Virus genome (UHGV): UHGV-1704081
Length of the DNA: 14,593 bases
DNA from: a virus
Reading direction: 5' to 3' (one strand)
Shown: piece after piece, positions 4,710 to 14,588 of the stretch
How the letters are laid out: each line of letters opens with the position of its first letter
Numbering within the stretch: the stretch's first letter is position 1
Position numbers and translations under genes: made by a program
Notes under the pieces: generated by a model
Database searches by the model: none
What the model was told of the DNA's origin: nothing
What the model saw: the letters and a program-made list of their open reading frames with translations, nothing else

Positions 4710-5963
4710 ATGGCTAACCAATTAGCAAAAGACCTTGAAATCATGTTCGAAAACTACGTTGAAGGCTTTGAGGCCGCCTGCGTAGTTTCCCGTAACGCTA
4801 AAAAATTCCGTCCCGGTGATACAGCAATGCAGCGAGCAGGTGATGTTCTGTATCGTCCGCAGCATTACCACATGAACATTGAAGAAGGCCTAGATCTCAG
4901 CGGCAAAACGCCAACAGCACTGGTTCAGCGCCTTGTTCCTTCTGTGTTCAAGGAGCCGAAAAACATTCTGTACACTCTGGATGCGCGTGAAATGCGTGAC
5001 CCTGAGCATAAAACTGAAGCTGGTCGCGCCGCAGGTATGCGCCTTGCTGCACAGATTGACTCTGACCTGATTTCCATGGTCACGCAGCGTGCTACTAACG
5101 TGATCACAATGGCTGACTCAACCACTGGTTCACAGGGCCGTGATTTGTGGAACTGTGCGGCAGGTATTGATGCCACCATGACGGCGATTGGTGTACCACA
5201 GGGTATCAACCGTCGCTCTTTCTGGAACCCCTTCAACTACAAAGACCTTGCTGGCGAGCTTGGTCACCGTGCCTATGCTCAGGGCGCAACCCTGACAGCA
5301 TACGAAAAAGCGCAAATCCCTCCGGTTGCGTCCTTTGATAGCTACAAGACCGATATTTCTGGTCGTGTTCCGAAGGGTACAGCAACTTCCCTGACGCTGG
5401 CGGCTGAACCTGCGCACAAGGTTGAAGCGAAAGATGCCAACGATATGCCAGTGGATAACCGACAGGGGACCATTACGGTATCTGCATCTGGTTTGCAGGT
5501 TGGCGATGCGTTTACCATCGCAGGCGTGAATTCCGTACACCAGATCACCAAAGATACCACCGGGCAGCCGCAGGTATTCCGCGTTCTGGCAGTAAGCGGA
5601 ACGACAGTAACTATCTCCCCGAAAATTCTGCCGCCTGACAACGCGGATGTCGCCAGCCGACCATATGCAAACGTTGATGCTAACGCGGCAAATGGTGCAG
5701 CAATTACCATTCTCAACAAAAATGCCGCACCGGCTAACCTGTTCTGGGCTGATGGTTCTGTTGAGCTGATGTACGGCAAACTGGCGTTCCCGACTGGTCA
5801 GGGTCCACAGGTAATGACAGCAACCACCGAGCAGGGCGCTACGCTGATCATGTCTTACGCCTTCGACCACATCAAAGGCGTAACCACTGCTCGTTTCACC
5901 ACTCTGTACGGTTGCTCTGTACTTGTTCCTGAATATACGGGCATCGTTATTGCCGGGCAGTAA
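4710..5963 (+). CDS. Major capsid (coat) protein (P22 gp5-like family, divergent from P22)
   Basis: 417-aa ORF directly after the scaffold gene. GGAG Shine-Dalgarno 8 nt upstream. Size and position match P22-like coat proteins. Followed by a strong stem-loop terminator. Confidence 0.85.
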   Translation: MANQLAKDLEIMFENYVEGFEAACVVSRNAKKFRPGDTAMQRAGDVLYRPQHYHMNIEEGLDLSGKTPTALVQRLVPSVFKEPKNILYTLDAREMRDPEHKTEAGRAAGMRLAAQIDSDLISMVTQRATNVITMADSTTGSQGRDLWNCAAGIDATMTAIGVPQGINRRSFWNPFNYKDLAGELGHRAYAQGATLTAYEKAQIPPVASFDSYKTDISGRVPKGTATSLTLAAEPAHKVEAKDANDMPVDNRQGTITVSASGLQVGDAFTIAGVNSVHQITKDTTGQPQVFRVLAVSGTTVTISPKILPPDNADVASRPYANVDANAANGAAITILNKNAAPANLFWADGSVELMYGKLAFPTGQGPQVMTATTEQGATLIMSYAFDHIKGVTTARFTTLYGCSVLVPEYTGIVIAGQ

Positions 5964-5970
5964 TTTTGGT

Positions 5971-5993
5971 GGGGCTTCGGCCCCATTTTTATT
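5971..5993 (+). terminator. Rho-independent terminator-like hairpin after the coat gene (probably partial/leaky)
   Basis: GGGGC-TTCG-GCCCC (5971-5984): 5-bp GC stem with a UUCG-type tetraloop, followed by ATTTTTATT. Starts 8 nt after the coat stop codon. Confidence 0.6.
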
Positions 5994-6004
5994 GGGAGAA
6001 GACA

Positions 6005-6193
6005 ATGGCACGAACAATGCTCTATAAGCCGGGCAACATGATCACCTGTGGTCAGGTTGCTGTCGATTACATCATTGTTGATGACGAAGAAGTTAAATCT
6101 CACCTGAAAAAAGGCTGGGTAAAAGCTCCTGAAGAAACCGCAACGAAGCAAAAAGTGGCTAAGGCGGAAGAAGATGGCGAAAACGAAGGGTGA
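6005..6193 (+). CDS. Small hypothetical protein (62 aa) between coat and gp4
   Basis: ATG at 6005 preceded by GGGAG (5994-5998) with 6-nt spacer. The ORF track's longer version starts at TTG 5966, inside the terminator, which is less plausible. 3' end overlaps the gp4 start by 20 nt. Charged C-terminal half (KQKVAKAEEDGENEG). No function assignable. Confidence 0.4.
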   Translation: MARTMLYKPGNMITCGQVAVDYIIVDDEEVKSHLKKGWVKAPEETATKQKVAKAEEDGENEG

Positions 6194-6635
6194 TCTCGTT
6201 CTAAAGGCTTTACGAAAAGCCGGGCTGTATTCCAATGCCACGTTGACAGATGCTGACCCTCAGGCAATTGAAGATGCCATTAATGACCTCGAAGACATGA
6301 TGGCAGCATGGCAGGCTAAAGGTATCGAGCTTGGATATCAGTTTGCGGATACAGAAAACGGCATCATGCCGTTACCTGACGATGATTCAGGTATCCCTGC
6401 ATGGGCAAATGATGGCGTCGCTTTGAAGCTCGCTGTGCAAGTGTGCATGGATAACGTCATTCAGCCGTCGGATGCTCTCCTGACCGCTGCTGACAGTGCA
6501 TATCAGACAATCTGTATCGCTTTAACCAAAATACCACCACTTGAGCGACGAAATGACATGCCTCGCGGTAGTGGTAACAAAAGCGCGTTTACGTGGAATC
6601 GGTTTTACATCGAGAAAGATGATCCGAGTACGTGA
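6174..6635 (+). CDS. Head-to-tail adaptor / portal-closure protein (P22 gp4-like)
   Basis: 153-aa ORF. N-terminus (MAKTKGDLVLKALRKAG…ATLTDADPQAIEDAINDLEDMMAAWQ) resembles P22 gp4 as I recall it. Position before the gp10-like gene. Confidence 0.85.
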   Translation: MAKTKGDLVLKALRKAGLYSNATLTDADPQAIEDAINDLEDMMAAWQAKGIELGYQFADTENGIMPLPDDDSGIPAWANDGVALKLAVQVCMDNVIQPSDALLTAADSAYQTICIALTKIPPLERRNDMPRGSGNKSAFTWNRFYIEKDDPST

Positions 6636-10030: not shown

Positions 10031-11392
10031 TTGGCTACATGGCAACAGGCTGGTAATTCAGGCGCGCTTCTTGCCGGGTTAGGCGGCATGAACTCCAACG
10101 CTCCAAGAGCAAGTGATGCAGACGCCACGCTTGCATACATTCGACAGAATAACGAGATGGAGCGTTCAGGACGTAATAACGTTGGCTTGCAGGCTTTGCA
10201 GGGCATTTCATCTGTCATGGATATGTATAAGCAGATGGATCAGCAGAAGCGACAGCAAGAGTTTCAGCAGGCTTATGCTGATGCATATACATCTGGTGAC
10301 CGCGATGCAATGCGAAAACTGGCATCACAGTATCCTGAGCAGTTTGACGCTGTAAGAAACGGCATGAAATTTGTCGATGAAGACCAGCGTTCCACTGTCG
10401 GCACACTGGCAGCAAGTGCCAGACTGGCAGCTTCATCTCCAGAAGCCATGATGTCATGGTTGCAGAACAACTCATCTGAGCTTACTCGTGCCGGAGTAGA
10501 CCCTCTGGATGTGGCGAAAATGTATCAGCAAAATCCACAAGGTTTCACAGAGTTTGTTGATCACCTTGGAATGGCTGCTCTTGGTCCGATTGATTACTTC
10601 AATGTTCAGGACAAGATGGCTGGTCGTGAAATTGACAGAGGCAGGCTGGCAGAGACAATCCGCAGCAATCAGGCTGGCGAGGCGCTAACAGCACGTGGTC
10701 AGAATATCACGATGCGCGGTCAGGATTTATCGATGCAGAGAGCATCAATGAAAGGGTCGGTTGGGAATAATGAGCGTACAGTTCAGTTAGCAGATGGCAG
10801 AACTGTAACGGTAGGCGGGAAGCTTCACGGCGCTGGGGCTAATGCGTTCTACGAAGGTATCGACAACGAGGGGAATATGGTTCGCGTCCCTGCTGGCTCT
10901 ATTGCCGCTCCGGCTACATCGGCAGCAAGCGCGCAGAATTACGCAATGAAGAAAGATCTTGATGCAATTTCTGGTGCATCAATTGACGATCTTGGCTTCA
11001 TGACTGGCATTACAGGCTCTTCAGGTTCTCCTGCTCTTGGTGCAGATATTCGTAGCCGTGTATCTGGTGGTGATCAGAGGAAACTATACAACGCTGCACA
11101 GCGAATCCAAGGAAAGATGCAGAATCAGGGCATTGCAGCAGCCAGAGACATGGGGGCATCCGGTATCAACACCGTTGCAGAAGCAAAGCTGTATTTTCAA
11201 GGTATGCCACAGGTTGATTTCTCAAGCCCTGAAGCACTGCAACAATCAATGCGCGACATTCAGCAATATACCGACAATTACAACCAACAATATAACGTTA
11301 ATGTTGGTAAATCTCAGCGGCAGCAATCTCAACCTACACAGGTATCACAGCCAGCAGCCAGCAGTAACTTTTCTTCACTATGGGGTGATTAA
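10031..11392 (+). CDS. Ejection protein, P22 gp20-like
   Basis: 453-aa ORF starting at TTG 10031, with GGAGG (10020-10024) 6 nt upstream. No in-frame ATG is available near the 5' end. Middle position of the three ejection genes. Stop overlaps the next start (TAATG at 11390-11394). Confidence 0.75.
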
Positions 11393-13257
11393 TGGCTAAA
11401 GCATGGAAAGATGTTATCGCCTCTCCACAGTATCAGGCGTTAACTGAAGAACAGAAAGCACAGGCTCAAGCGCAATATTTTGATGAGGTTGTTGCCCCTA
11501 AGGCTGGTGACAAATGGGCTGAAGCAAGAGATCAGTTTTATGCAGCATACCCTCCGCCTCAGCAGCAGAAAGAAGAACCATCATTGATGCAACAAGCTGG
11601 CGATTGGCTCACTGGTGGTCAAAGTGCAGGGCAAATTGCAGAACAGGCTGGTCGTGGTCTGGTAAACATACCATTTGACGTATTGCAGGGTGGCGCAAGT
11701 CTGATTAATGCAATCAGTCAGGGGCTTGGTGGCCCCAAGGTTTTGGACGATGTCTATCGTCCAGTAGATCGACCAACAGACCCTCATGCGCAAGCTGGAG
11801 AAACAATTGGCGGGTATTTAGTTCCAGGAGTTGGAACGGCAGGAAGCATGGCTATTGGATCACTGGCAGAGGCCGCAAATCAGAAAGGCGATTTCGCACA
11901 AAATGCAGCTAAAAATGCCGGAGTTAACCTTGCCGCTCAGGGGGTTCTTTCCGCAGCAGCAAAGGGAATAGGGCGTGGAATTACTGCTGTTCGTGGCGAA
12001 ATATCACCAGCAGATCAGCAATTGCTCAAGCGTGCCGCTGCGGCAGATGTACCAGTTATGACATCGGATGTAGTTCCTCCAAAAACAAAACTTGGCAATC
12101 AACTGCAGGGTTACTCAGAAGGAGTCATAGCTGGTACTGGACCAATGAGAGCCGCACAGCAGGATGCCAGAACCAAGCTTGTTAATCGCTTCACCGAAAA
12201 ATACGGCGACTACGATCCATCTGTAGTCGTTGATAGTCTAAAGTCAGGCGTTGCAAGGGAAAAATCGTTAGCCAAGTCAAAACTAAACAGCCTGTCAGGA
12301 AGAATGGTTGGAAAGCCAGTTGATACAAGTGGCGCCATAAGAGCTATCGACGGAGCAGTAAACGAACTTGGGAAACTTAAAGGTGTTTCTGACACCCAGA
12401 CCATTTCTGCGCTTAATGATTATAAGAATGCCATTCAGGAGATAACAAATGGAGATGATGCCTTTGAGTTACTTGATAAGCTGAGAACTCAGTTCCGCAT
12501 TGACGTAAAAGGCGATCGTACAGTTCTGCCATCAATGTCGCAAACAATGGTCGACAGGGTCTACAACTCGCTAACCAATAGCCTTAGTAAATCTATAGCG
12601 AAAGGACTTAGCCCAAAAGATGCTTCAGCATGGAGAGCGGGAAAAGCTGATTATGCAAAAATGGCAACACATGCAACTCAAACGCGCCTTAAAAACGTTC
12701 TAAACAAAGGAGATTTAACTCCCGAGGCTGTAAATACCATTGTGTATGGACAATATGGGTCAGATATAGCTCGATTGTACGGGAAACTCGATCAAAAAGG
12801 TAAAGACATGCTAAGGGCGGCATATATCAGCAAAATAGCTGACAAGGTAGGTGACAGCCCTCAGAAAATGATGACCGAGCTTGGCAAGCTGCAAAAACAA
12901 GCAAATGGTCAGGTGTTTAAAACTGTATTTGGTGGGAAGAACGGAAAAGAGATAGAGGGGATGTTATCTATTCTCGATGCTACCAAAAGAGCATCTGAGG
13001 CTAATGTTGTGACGAAGACTGGCATGACACTCGCGCCTTTGGTAAGGGTTATTGGTAACCTAAAAACCGGAGGCGCGCTATTGGCTGGGGAAACAGGGAT
13101 TGGCCTTATGTCGAGGGTTTATGAAAGCCCTATGGCTAGGAATGCGCTCTTACGTCTGGCAAACACTAAAGCTGGAACGCCAGCTTATGAAAGAGCGTTA
13201 AGCAAAGCTGCAAATGCCATCAGACCGCTGCTTGCCACTGAGGCAACACAGCAGTGA
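11392..13257 (+). CDS. Ejection protein, P22 gp16-like
   Basis: 621-aa ORF, close in size to P22 gp16 as I recall. Last gene of the ejection-protein trio. A/G/K-rich composition typical of this family. Confidence 0.8.
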   Translation: MAKAWKDVIASPQYQALTEEQKAQAQAQYFDEVVAPKAGDKWAEARDQFYAAYPPPQQQKEEPSLMQQAGDWLTGGQSAGQIAEQAGRGLVNIPFDVLQGGASLINAISQGLGGPKVLDDVYRPVDRPTDPHAQAGETIGGYLVPGVGTAGSMAIGSLAEAANQKGDFAQNAAKNAGVNLAAQGVLSAAAKGIGRGITAVRGEISPADQQLLKRAAAADVPVMTSDVVPPKTKLGNQLQGYSEGVIAGTGPMRAAQQDARTKLVNRFTEKYGDYDPSVVVDSLKSGVAREKSLAKSKLNSLSGRMVGKPVDTSGAIRAIDGAVNELGKLKGVSDTQTISALNDYKNAIQEITNGDDAFELLDKLRTQFRIDVKGDRTVLPSMSQTMVDRVYNSLTNSLSKSIAKGLSPKDASAWRAGKADYAKMATHATQTRLKNVLNKGDLTPEAVNTIVYGQYGSDIARLYGKLDQKGKDMLRAAYISKIADKVGDSPQKMMTELGKLQKQANGQVFKTVFGGKNGKEIEGMLSILDATKRASEANVVTKTGMTLAPLVRVIGNLKTGGALLAGETGIGLMSRVYESPMARNALLRLANTKAGTPAYERALSKAANAIRPLLATEATQQ

Positions 13258-13274
13258 CTAAATGCCATGGATGG

Positions 13275-13463
13275 TTATTTCCCTAGCACATGAAACAATG
13301 TTTGCTTTAATTCCACCCATACAATTATGACCACTATAGACAGACAAAAGAAACTGAATGCATTGGCATCACGATCGAAACCTTCTCCGGCACTAAATCC
13401 GTAAAAGGTCATAAAAAATATAAAAATTGCGCACTTTGCAACGTTTACAAATTTTTTCTTCAC
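13275..13463 (-). CDS. Small predicted two-helix membrane protein (62 aa from GTG; 87 aa if the upstream ATG at 13538 is used)
   Basis: Minus-strand ORF convergent with gp16. Strong Shine-Dalgarno AGGAGG (complement of 13469-13474) with 5-nt spacer before in-frame GTG (complement of 13461-13463). Product MKKKFVNVAKCAIFIFFMTFYGFSAGEGFDRDANAFSFFCLSIVVIIVWVELKQTLFHVLGK: basic N-terminus, two hydrophobic segments, short acidic loop. AT-rich. Confidence 0.55.
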   Translation of the reverse strand: MKKKFVNVAKCAIFIFFMTFYGFSAGEGFDRDANAFSFFCLSIVVIIVWVELKQTLFHVLGK

Positions 13464-13527
13464 ACCAACCTCCTTAGTTTTGCGCAGGATACCAGATGAT
13501 AATGTGTAGTTGGAGTAGCGCGGTTGC

Positions 13528-13594
13528 AATGCAAGCATTTTGTTTTAGTTTTATGCTTGCTTGTATGTGTGTACAGTGTATATAATGCAAGCAT
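13528..13594. promoter_or_regulatory. Three copies of a GCAAGCAT core motif (two direct, one inverted) flanking the promoter; candidate operator sites
   Basis: AATGCAAGCAT at 13528-13538 and again at 13584-13594 (11/11 identical; the second overlaps the -10 box). The inverted copy ATGCTTGC at 13553-13560 overlaps the candidate -35. Spacing is GCAAGCAT-N14-ATGCTTGC-N26-GCAAGCAT. Confidence 0.4.
13557..13586 (+). promoter_or_regulatory. Candidate sigma70 promoter for the downstream accessory ORF
   Basis: Perfect -10 TATAAT at 13581-13586. Candidate -35 TTGCTT at 13557-13562 (18-bp spacer), or TTGTAT at 13561-13566 (14-bp spacer). Lies about 34 nt upstream of the ATG at 13620, in an AT-rich intergenic region. 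Confidence 0.5.
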
Positions 13595-13619
13595 ACATCA
13601 CAACAAAGGTTCTTGCATT

Positions 13620-14588
13620 ATGACTGAAAAGAAAAGTGGCGAAGGGAAAGCTAAGGGCGGGATCGCTCGCGCAAAGTCGCTGACTAAAGAGCAGCGTTCT
13701 GAAATAGCAAAGAAAGCAGCTGCTGCAAGATGGAAAAGTAAGATTCTCAGGGCAACTCATCGTGGTAACTTTTTAGATGATTTTGGCATTGACGCTGAAT
13801 GTTATGTACTGGATGACGAGTCGAAAACTGTCGTTGTTACGAAAACTGGATTATCTCAGTTGCTAGGGATTGGTGAACATGCCAGGGATTTAGATCAACT
13901 GCTTGGCGCTCAGTATATGAGCAAATACCGAGATCTAGAATTGCAGCGAAAAATGGAAAATCCCTATAAATTTCAACTTACTTCGAAGTCTAAAACCGTT
14001 CATCAAGCGTTAGGTTATGACATTACAGCAATTGTTGATATTGGTAGGGCACTAATAGAAGCCAAAGATAATGACGATCTACCACAATCACGGTTAAAGG
14101 CAGCCGCCGCAGCACAGAGACTTATTAATGCCTCCGCTAAGGCGGGAATTAAGGGGGTTGCGTATGCGCTTGCTGGTTATCGCCCAGAAGTTCAGGCTGT
14201 CATTGACGAGTTCAAAGCGTTTGTTCGTGAAGAGGCTCGTCAATATGAAAAGGAATTTCCAGATGAGCTATACGAGGAGTGGTATCGACTGTACGGCCTG
14301 AATAGGCCAGAGAAAGGACGGCCTATTCGTTTTGGGCAGCTAACCAACATGCAGATATACACCCCGCTAGCAAAGAGTAAAGGTAAAATCCTTGAACAGA
14401 TTCGAGCCAGCCGAGACGAGAACGGAAAACAATCTGATAAGTTGCATCTGTTCCTTTCTGAAATTGGTGTCAAGGCTTTGCGTCAGCATATCGGTAAGCT
14501 TCTTGGTGTCGCAGCGATGAGTGAGACAAGAGAAGAATACGAAAAAGGAATAGAAAAGGTTTTCGGAAGAATGAAACCAGAAATCTAA
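13620..14588 (+). CDS. Hypothetical protein (~322 aa) with a highly basic N-terminal segment; function unknown, candidate accessory/defence gene
   Basis: Long ORF. ATG at 13620 preceded by AAAGG (13605-13609) and the TATAAT promoter. N-terminus MTEKKSGEGKAKGGIARAKSLTKEQRSEIAKKAAAARWKSK is K/R/A-rich, suggesting nucleic-acid binding. No Walker A, HNH or other catalytic motif seen by eye. The ORF track's TTG 13524 version adds 32 hydrophobic residues. Stop TAA at 14586-14588 is followed 2 nt later by ATG at 14591. Confidence 0.8.
   Translation: MTEKKSGEGKAKGGIARAKSLTKEQRSEIAKKAAAARWKSKILRATHRGNFLDDFGIDAECYVLDDESKTVVVTKTGLSQLLGIGEHARDLDQLLGAQYMSKYRDLELQRKMENPYKFQLTSKSKTVHQALGYDITAIVDIGRALIEAKDNDDLPQSRLKAAAAAQRLINASAKAGIKGVAYALAGYRPEVQAVIDEFKAFVREEARQYEKEFPDELYEEWYRLYGLNRPEKGRPIRFGQLTNMQIYTPLAKSKGKILEQIRASRDENGKQSDKLHLFLSEIGVKALRQHIGKLLGVAAMSETREEYEKGIEKVFGRMKPEI

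Follow-up and report, generated by a model that had tools for sequence, protein, structure and literature searches.

A 62-residue predicted membrane protein takes the place of SieA in P22-like prophages and is a candidate superinfection exclusion factor

The virus genome UHGV-1704081 (14,593 nucleotides (nt); this whole stretch of DNA is the window referred to below) carries, on the minus strand at 13275..13463, a short open reading frame (ORF) that stands tail to tail with the DNA ejection genes. What does this gene encode, and what does it do there? An initial annotation, made from the sequence alone, had proposed a small two-helix membrane protein that either blocks the injection of phage DNA or is toxic to the cell. 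We find that the ORF is a real gene under purifying selection, that its product of 62 amino acids (aa) is a predicted two-helix membrane protein, and that it replaces sieA of phage P22 with start-codon precision. Judged by its position and context, its function would most likely be the exclusion of injecting P22-like phages, i.e. a function like that of SieA without homology to SieA.

The coding sequence (CDS) runs from a GTG start codon at 13463-13461 to a TAA stop codon at 13277-13275, and its product, GTG-started, is V/MKKKFVNVAKCAIFIFFMTFYGFSAGEGFDRDANAFSFFCLSIVVIIVWVELKQTLFHVLGK. Across the start region, the minus strand of the window reads ...ctaAGGAGGttggtGTGaagaaaaaa..., which includes a strong and unoccluded Shine-Dalgarno sequence, AGGAGG, at 13474-13469, and a 5-nt spacer, ttggt, at 13468-13464. 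The initial annotation had described both the start signals and the protein (62 residues, a KKK N-terminus, two hydrophobic segments and a short acidic turn) in these terms, and the sequence bears it out; the relatives also begin at the position of this GTG, which is ATG in many of them. It should be added that the window contains 98 ORFs of at least 40 aa, so that the length of an ORF alone says nothing about its status as a gene. Here, both the gene status and the start are settled by comparative data.

A search of 5.8 billion proteins identified homologs of 62 aa in Salmonella and Serratia at 79-82% identity, while a profile search of 1.8 billion cluster representatives retrieved 12 proteins only, including members of 61-66 aa that have 32-53% identity and the same architecture. 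The alleles from E. coli, Salmonella and Serratia contain no insertions or deletions, and their ratio of nonsynonymous to synonymous substitution rates (dN/dS) is 0.14-0.42. Variable sites are distributed over the three codon positions as 16/7/28 (p = 0.0012), i.e. with a bias towards the third position, and each of the five alternative frames is closed by stops in every homolog. The longest form of the ORF has 87 aa and begins at an ATG at 13538, whereas the conserved form is that of 62 aa from the GTG. We rejected the 87-aa form, since its 25-residue N-terminal extension differs or is absent in the relatives, and the homology between phages breaks inside it.

As a sequence, the protein was known before: its family is already in the databases as an unnamed hypothetical. 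The match to phrog_21338, the PHROGs family to which it belongs and whose function is unknown, covers the full length of the protein (residues 1-62 against profile positions 1-62 of 62, E=4.3e-45, hmmscan). The exact 62-aa protein is found on at least 1000 contigs, on all of which it is called hypothetical, and, of 5426 complete E. coli genomes, 89 contain the DNA of the gene. Among the matches listed, 38 of the 40 E. coli genomes have no RefSeq feature under the match (e.g. NZ_CP028192 2421237-2421425); where RefSeq does annotate the gene, in few genomes, it does so as the 87-aa, ATG-started form (WP_021547413.1).

The position of the gene is that of sieA. In P22, 22 nt separate sieA from gene 16, with which it is convergent, and sieA has the same orientation as the window ORF. 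The window ORF, in turn, is convergent with a gene-16-type ORF of 621 aa (11392..13257, plus strand), with 17 nt between the two stop codons, which upholds the location beside DNA-ejection genes that had been pointed out at first. The leader, Shine-Dalgarno sequence and start codon at window 13461..13494 (minus strand; AGGAGG at 13474-13469) are held in common with P22 sieA (tggtatcctgcgcaaaactaAGGAGGttggtGTG): the 34 nt ending at the P22 sieA GTG are 97% identical to window 13494-13461, and the P22 sieA leader, ggtatcctgcacaaaactaaggaggttggtGTG, is the leader of the window. The same leader, with the window-type acacattatcatc extension, precedes the type B sieA of the E. coli HS prophage, which excludes P22 experimentally.

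The junction is sharpest in four viral contigs (L023, L024, L027 and L033), where the 421 nt upstream of the 62-aa gene share 98-99% identity with P22. Within these 421 nt lie hkcC and the 85 bp upstream of sieA, and the homology breaks off precisely at the start codon (ATG in L033). Those 85 bp, the putative PsieA promoter, were part of a functional single-copy sieA construct (Leavitt et al. 2024, PMC10883804). Since the upstream identity ends at the start codon, the 62-aa CDS has been swapped for the sieA CDS behind the same expression signals. The junction also touches on SieA itself, the start codon of which is uncertain (162 or 164 aa; Leavitt et al., PMC10883804): homology between sieA phages and 62-aa-gene phages ends at the GTG of the 164-aa form (L018 3829-3831), with AGGAGG 5 nt upstream, and this supports the start of the 164-aa form.

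We collected 54 loci that encode a member of the family. At all 54, the gene is intact and is convergent, at 17-45 nt, with a gene-16-type ORF, which has 600-790 aa in the intact prophages; the upstream neighbour varies widely. Neither type A nor type B sieA is present at any of these 54 loci, many of which are closely related and do not count as independent observations. Plasmid copies of the 62-aa gene were searched for and none was found, and the contig scan for the gene returned one locus. In the complete E. coli genomes, a DNA search located sieA type A in 35 and type B in 21, which makes the 62-aa gene, with 89, the commoner. A literature search found no description of the fixed leader/start-codon junction or of the 62-aa gene. 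The recognition of this gene as a start-codon-precise alternative to sieA appears to be new here, as does its greater frequency in complete E. coli genomes. We hold it to be highly probable that the gene is real, belongs to the prophage, encodes a membrane protein and is allelic to sieA.

What kind of protein does the gene encode? In the Kyte-Doolittle hydropathy profile, two segments are hydrophobic (about residues 5-26 and 33-52); the N-terminus carries a net charge of +4, the turn (E27, D30, R31 and D32) one of -2 and the C-tail one of +1. AlphaFold2, run with an 11-sequence alignment, models a helical hairpin (helix 2-25, turn 26-29, helix 30-59) with a mean predicted local distance difference test score (pLDDT) of 85.7. 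The two transmembrane helices expected by the initial annotation are thus predicted by hydropathy and recur in the modelled hairpin. Helix 1 (about residues 5-26; 13386..13451, minus strand) is delimited by hydropathy, the model and conserved columns, and has the KKK N-terminus before it; its conserved residues K10, F14, M18 and G22 are spaced such that they lie on one face. Conservation that is periodic in this manner speaks for a helix 1 that is kept as a helix and not cleaved off as a signal peptide. Helix 2 (about residues 33-52; 13308..13367, minus strand), delimited by hydropathy, the model and the alignment, ends in a conserved W-x-E-[IL]-K membrane-boundary motif; within it and at the cytoplasmic boundary, S37, F38, I43, I46, I47, W49, E51 and K53 are conserved. 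The turn of the hairpin is variable in the family alignment. By the positive-inside rule, both ends of the protein are predicted to be cytoplasmic. When the model was compared with BFVD, a collection of predicted structures of viral proteins, nothing matched at E<=0.001, which is expected of a bare hairpin.

From the position and the context of the gene, we give an even chance to the explanation that the prophage expresses its product as an exclusion factor of the inner membrane, with the gp16/gp20 DNA-delivery conduit as the target. In this reading, the 62-aa gene belongs to the many cargo genes that replace one another in the sieA slot of P22-like prophages. The slot is the first position of the ‘ant moron’, a variable and independently expressed block between gene 16 and the tailspike gene. 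In the lysogen, the signals that drive P22 sieA (leader, ribosome-binding site and start codon) would also serve to express the 62-aa gene. The protein would insert in the inner membrane as an N-in/C-in hairpin, and would there disturb how the gp16/gp20 conduit assembles or works, or mask a host partner of the conduit such as YajC. As an outcome, superinfecting P22-like phages would fail to deliver their DNA. The host protein YajC is needed for P22 plating (PMC10883804), and the substitutions by which P22 escapes SieA affect G532 and P546 of gp16 (Leavitt et al. 2024, PMC10883804). The C-terminal domain of the window gp16 has 57% identity to P22 gp16 over the last 157 aligned columns and retains the glycine equivalent to G532; part of the window gene 16 shows 75% nucleotide identity to P22 gene 16.

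A second product of the slot has been studied experimentally in BTP1, a P22-like prophage of Salmonella that has neither sieA nor the ant moron. Here the slot yields STnc6030, a transcript that is abundant in lysogens (Owen et al. 2020, PMC7067206) and that corresponds to D23580 403942-404727, i.e. 5704-6489 of LT714109 (L176), minus strand. Cells with cloned STnc6030 are fully immune to BTP1 and not to P22, prophage induction is not reduced, and STnc6030 was classed as an antisense RNA on the ground that it has no ORF of more than 60 aa (PMC7067206). Four single-nucleotide polymorphisms that escape it, all of them nonsynonymous, are located in the gene-16 homolog at D23580 404041-404078 (PMC7067206). 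We mapped these to about codons 583-595 of the 655 codons of BTP1 gene 16 (L176 5803-5840). In the gp16 alignment, the BTP1 escape segment (columns 629-642) contains P546 of P22 (column 636), and G532 (column 622) is 7 columns away. This overlap of escape sites suggests that gp16 may be targeted at the protein level by both STnc6030 and SieA.

The 155-nt spacer between gene 16 and the tailspike gene of BTP1 holds a candidate for such a protein. On the STnc6030 strand it reads GGAGGgtttATG, followed by a hydrophobic ORF of 23 aa, MERDLLNFVFLIFGLVVGKLLFA (L176 6083-6012, minus strand), which has one helix and is the sole conserved, Shine-Dalgarno-preceded ORF in the spacer. Phage L (L177 1209-1280) and, by blastn, ST64T and ST104 have MNRDLLNFAFLIFGIVVGRLLFA at the same place. 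Between BTP1 and phage L, the ORF has 16 nt differences in 69 nt, with 7 codons that differ synonymously only and 4 conservative changes, and the DNA upstream of it is unrelated, the ribosome-binding site excepted. Northern blots show an STnc6030 species of about 500 nt, and a transcript of this length would stop shortly after the ORF without reaching the proposed ‘seed’. The 23-aa ORF in STnc6030 looks like a missed micropeptide gene; the conservation of the ORF, the length of the transcript and the overlap of the escape sites combine to make exclusion by the BTP1 slot look like the work of a protein acting on gp16 and not of an RNA.

As to a relationship between the 23-aa ORF and the 62-aa family, one family member with 44% identity to the window protein (L054) stands in the place of the 23-aa ORF and has a leader about 75% identical to the tailspike-proximal leader of BTP1. 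When the 23-aa peptide was compared with helix 2 of the family, the profile scores were 1.5 and 4.8 bits, which are reached by 10% and 0.55% of shuffles, respectively. A blastn search with the BTP1 spacer returned 29 phage records, and none of them is a 62-aa-gene phage (JEP4, phiv205-1, UPF_BP1).

The slot itself holds many other genes. A scan of IMG/VR, i.e. public viral contigs, for the leader CAAAACTAAGGAGGTTGGTRTG returned at least 120 loci, and the ORFs that follow the leader have 62, 68, 75, 99, 103/106, 107/109, 116, 129, 140, 149 and 164 aa, the last of these being SieA. BLASTP divides the ORFs behind the leader CAAAACTAAGGAGGTTGGT+RTG (window 13461-13494; IMG/VR loci L056-L175) into at least 11 cargo families that are unrelated to one another, and 10 of 11 families have a stretch that is signal-like or transmembrane. 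Among the matches listed, nearly every cargo ORF faces a long convergent ORF at -4 to 63 nt. Each type of cargo turns up with several different contexts upstream, and the context of the window also precedes six other cargo types; this argues for exchange at a fixed translation-initiation region. The slot corresponds to the gene-16-proximal edge of the ant moron, which according to Villafane et al. 2008 (PMC2629481) is in rapid flux. Another point that appears new here is the membership of the 62-aa gene in a cassette with at least 11 unrelated and mostly envelope-targeted cargo families.

The other end of the slot is also marked by a common sequence. An 11-nt motif, CC(A/G/T)TCC(A/G/T)TGGC, lies 3′ of the stop codon of the slot gene in the window (13264-13274), in L021, L053 and L054, in P22 and with several other cargo types. 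In the window it reads CCATCCATGGC (13274-13264, minus strand) and lies in the 17-nt spacer between the convergent stop codons (13258..13274). The motif is kept even where the slot proteins share just 44-53% identity or are unrelated, and it may be a recombination boundary sequence or a signal for the 3′ end of an RNA.

The 62-aa gene closes a two-gene unit in many prophages (L013-L017 5483-5968; L010-L012; L021 1410-1883; L030 4325-4873). Which gene opens the unit varies: it may encode a PIN-domain protein, a Fic protein, a periplasmic protein of the Rap1a-like kind or a 161-aa lipoprotein with an LAGC lipobox, the gene of which follows the sieA leader. In addition, a degraded P22-like prophage in the Serratia fonticola chromosome (L009, L022), in which gene 16 is truncated to 329 aa, keeps an intact block of mnt, the Rap1a-like gene and the 62-aa gene; the contig is found in 14 samples. 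This remnant hints at a moron that has been retained after the decay of the phage.

A tentative reading, in which we place distinctly less confidence, joins the data on the cassette with those on BTP1. The sieA slot might be a hot-swappable, start-codon-precise cassette, the envelope proteins of which, at least 11 unrelated kinds, might all keep out superinfecting P22-like phages by attacking, at the inner membrane, the conserved C-terminal domain of gp16 (or its partners gp20 or YajC); the 62-aa hairpin would then be a minimal blocker, and the 23-aa micropeptide of STnc6030 one that is smaller still. If so, single- and double-helix micro-proteins able to block injection would have been systematically overlooked in annotation.

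Several observations weigh against exclusion by the 62-aa protein. First, the cargo families other than SieA are without known function, and occupancy of the slot does not prove exclusion. Second, in Salmonella and Serratia the 62-aa gene is often second in order, behind the lipoprotein or Rap1a-like gene and in the same orientation, and the protein might serve as a partner or anchor instead of acting alone. Third, helix 1 may be a cleavable signal peptide, and conservation is lowest in the periplasmic turn, where the hairpin is most exposed to an arriving conduit. Fourth, the protein has no detectable homology to SieA: we considered a likeness to SieA (AIFIF...GE..F) and rejected it, given an E value of 0.29 by BLASTP against P22 SieA and a probability of 0.1% in hhalign of the family alignments. 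It has 62 aa and 2 helices, compared with 164 aa and 3 helices in P22 SieA (about 160-210 aa and 3-4 helices in SieA types A-C), and is without the conserved cytoplasmic C-terminal motif FxRYPxEAxxFNK. Finally, a promoter scan found no consensus promoter for the 62-aa gene in the 156-nt divergent control region of the window; the same scan also misses the sieA promoter annotated in the P22 record. A -10 hexamer, CATTAT, lies at 13499..13504 (minus strand), and its only -35-like partner in the window is TTGCAA, at 19 nt spacing; in upstream contexts of the JEP4/HS1 type, CATTAT is paired with TTGATA at 17 nt (a TTGATA-17-CATTAT promoter). We regard CATTAT as a candidate promoter element, and the transcription of the 62-aa gene as putative.

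In an alternative explanation, the protein is a prophage-expressed envelope protein with another role in lysogenic conversion or defence and does not block P22-like injection. It could modulate a host membrane protein, act against other phages or bacteriocins, anchor a co-transcribed periplasmic cargo, or be a membrane effector of abortive infection. The slot carries at least 11 unrelated, uncharacterised cargo families; the tandem partners include the lipoprotein, the Rap1a-like protein (of the type VI secretion immunity type), Fic and PIN proteins; and the Serratia prophage remnant retains an intact 62-aa gene beside a truncated gene 16. Set against this are the precise replacement of sieA, together with which the gene was never found, and its constant linkage to gene 16, with no copy on plasmids or in the other contexts examined. 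Moreover, both of the slot products that have been studied experimentally exclude P22-like phages through gp16. We consider such a role unlikely, if well worth keeping in mind.

Could the RNA be the functional product? A transcript of the gene would meet no terminator, since a terminator scan of the 17-nt spacer between the convergent genes found none; it would run into the 3′ end of gene 16, antisense to late messages of an incoming or resident phage, with the ORF being secondary or the molecule having a dual function. The gene is indeed antisense to late-operon read-through, and exclusion by STnc6030 was published and read as an antisense RNA effect (PMC7067206). An RNA-only function is contradicted by the constraint on the ORF at the protein level, which extends across 32-98% identity. 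No 62-aa-gene phage is among the records that match the STnc6030 spacer of BTP1, and an Rfam search of 12900-13900 at E<=1 gave chance-level eukaryotic matches only. The BTP1 data, in turn, fit a protein better: induction is unaffected, the escapes are nonsynonymous, the main transcript has about 500 nt and the 23-aa ORF is conserved. Because the transcript must run antisense into gene 16, we keep a dual function with RNA as an option, and judge the RNA explanation as a whole to be quite improbable.

The toxin and holin alternatives named in the initial annotation fit the locus poorly. A small membrane toxin of the type I kind, or a pore former like the class II holins, would be small, very hydrophobic and two-helical with charged ends, as is the 62-aa protein; this architecture is common to class II holins and some toxins. 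The strong and exposed Shine-Dalgarno sequence argues against the type I toxin-antitoxin class, and together with the lysogen-active sieA leader it would entail constitutive production. The gene is intact in the 89 complete E. coli genomes and on the contigs counted above, and no antitoxin RNA family was found by Rfam in the region searched, though small RNAs outside the known families may exist. As to a holin, the neighbours are gene 16 and a P63C-domain protein gene and not lysis genes, the signals are of the prophage type, and the ORF is antisense to the late operon. A toxin or holin is accordingly a most improbable product of this gene.

Finally, a chance ORF, or the decayed remnant of a larger gene such as sieA, might be suspected from the abundance of short ORFs in the window, the silence of RefSeq in most genomes and the faint local likeness to the SieA C-terminus, but is effectively excluded by a length and architecture kept across genera, dN/dS below 1, the codon-position bias, the closed alternative frames and the lack of significance of the SieA likeness.

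With respect to the neighbouring genes, in E. coli prophages that are 99% identical the gene-16-type ORF carries the RefSeq name ‘P22-gp16 family phage DNA ejection protein’, and in the window this ORF follows homologs of gp7 and gp20 (PF25688, PF16928). The window protein matched no Pfam family, Phage_P22_gp16 (PF26808) included; evidently, the Pfam gp16 model misses the gp16 type of the window. On the other side, the P63C-domain protein gene (13620..14588, plus strand; PF10546 E=7e-14, RefSeq annotation) is divergent from the 62-aa gene and shares with it the 156-nt control region. A near-palindrome, ATGC(A/T)(A/T)GCAT, occurs there three times within 66 bp (window 13529-13594; see also 13612-13621), twice as an exact AATGCAAGCAT and once with a single mismatch, and the whole window contains only one further match with one mismatch. 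The near-palindromes flank a TTGCTT-18-TATAAT promoter-like site of the P63C gene, with a similar arrangement in L053, and they look like operator sites for an unknown repressor.

Exclusion by the 62-aa protein, if it holds, would constitute a non-homologous and far smaller form of prophage-encoded, injection-blocking superinfection exclusion. Given that sieA is present in only about one third of the sequenced P22-like phages (PMC10883804), the 62-aa gene and the other leader-linked cargo would account for the content of the slot in P22-like phages without sieA. If injection is blocked, the protein would provide a 62-residue tool for the inner-membrane crossing by gp16/gp20, and structural or genetic studies would be much simpler with it than with SieA. 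The common leader, for its part, is a sequence handle with which unrelated candidate exclusion proteins can be collected.

How does the protein compare with known systems? Searches with the 62-aa protein returned no family from Pfam-A at E<=1, no match from NCBIfam and no match at E<=1 among the defence-protein models of PADLOC-DB 2.0; weak matches of the 87-aa form to EpsG and TtrC were set aside, as they are far under the cut-offs and reflect hydrophobic composition. With no Pfam match at E<=1, the protein is not a member of the SieA family (PF26849, the Pfam entry listed by the search for SieA homologs) or of the T4 Imm family. The initial idea of an exclusion factor of the Imm or SieA type therefore loses the family membership, and is strengthened in position and architecture by the sieA slot, the leader and the absence of sieA from all 54 loci. 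T4 Imm is a small inner-membrane protein of less than 90 aa with two hydrophobic segments, and blocks DNA entry. The 62-aa protein resembles it in being small, in its two membrane segments, an architecture that does not by itself define membership, and in the proposed block of DNA entry; the two differ in phage type and expression programme, Imm being encoded by an early gene in a lytic phage and the 62-aa protein by a prophage gene.

STnc6030 is similar in its location in the slot between gene 16 and the tailspike gene, on the same strand as the 62-aa gene, in its expression in lysogens and in the exclusion proposed here, which in its case is phage-specific and has escapes in the gp16 C-terminus. 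It differs in having been published as a non-coding antisense RNA, and homology of its 23-aa ORF to the 62-aa family is not demonstrable. The closest counterpart is SieA, with which the 62-aa protein shares the slot between genes 16 and 9 of a P22-like prophage, the convergence with gene 16 at about 17-22 nt and the antisense orientation to the late operon. The two also have in common their leader, their Shine-Dalgarno sequence and a GTG start, both are predicted integral membrane proteins, and in the loci examined they are mutually exclusive.

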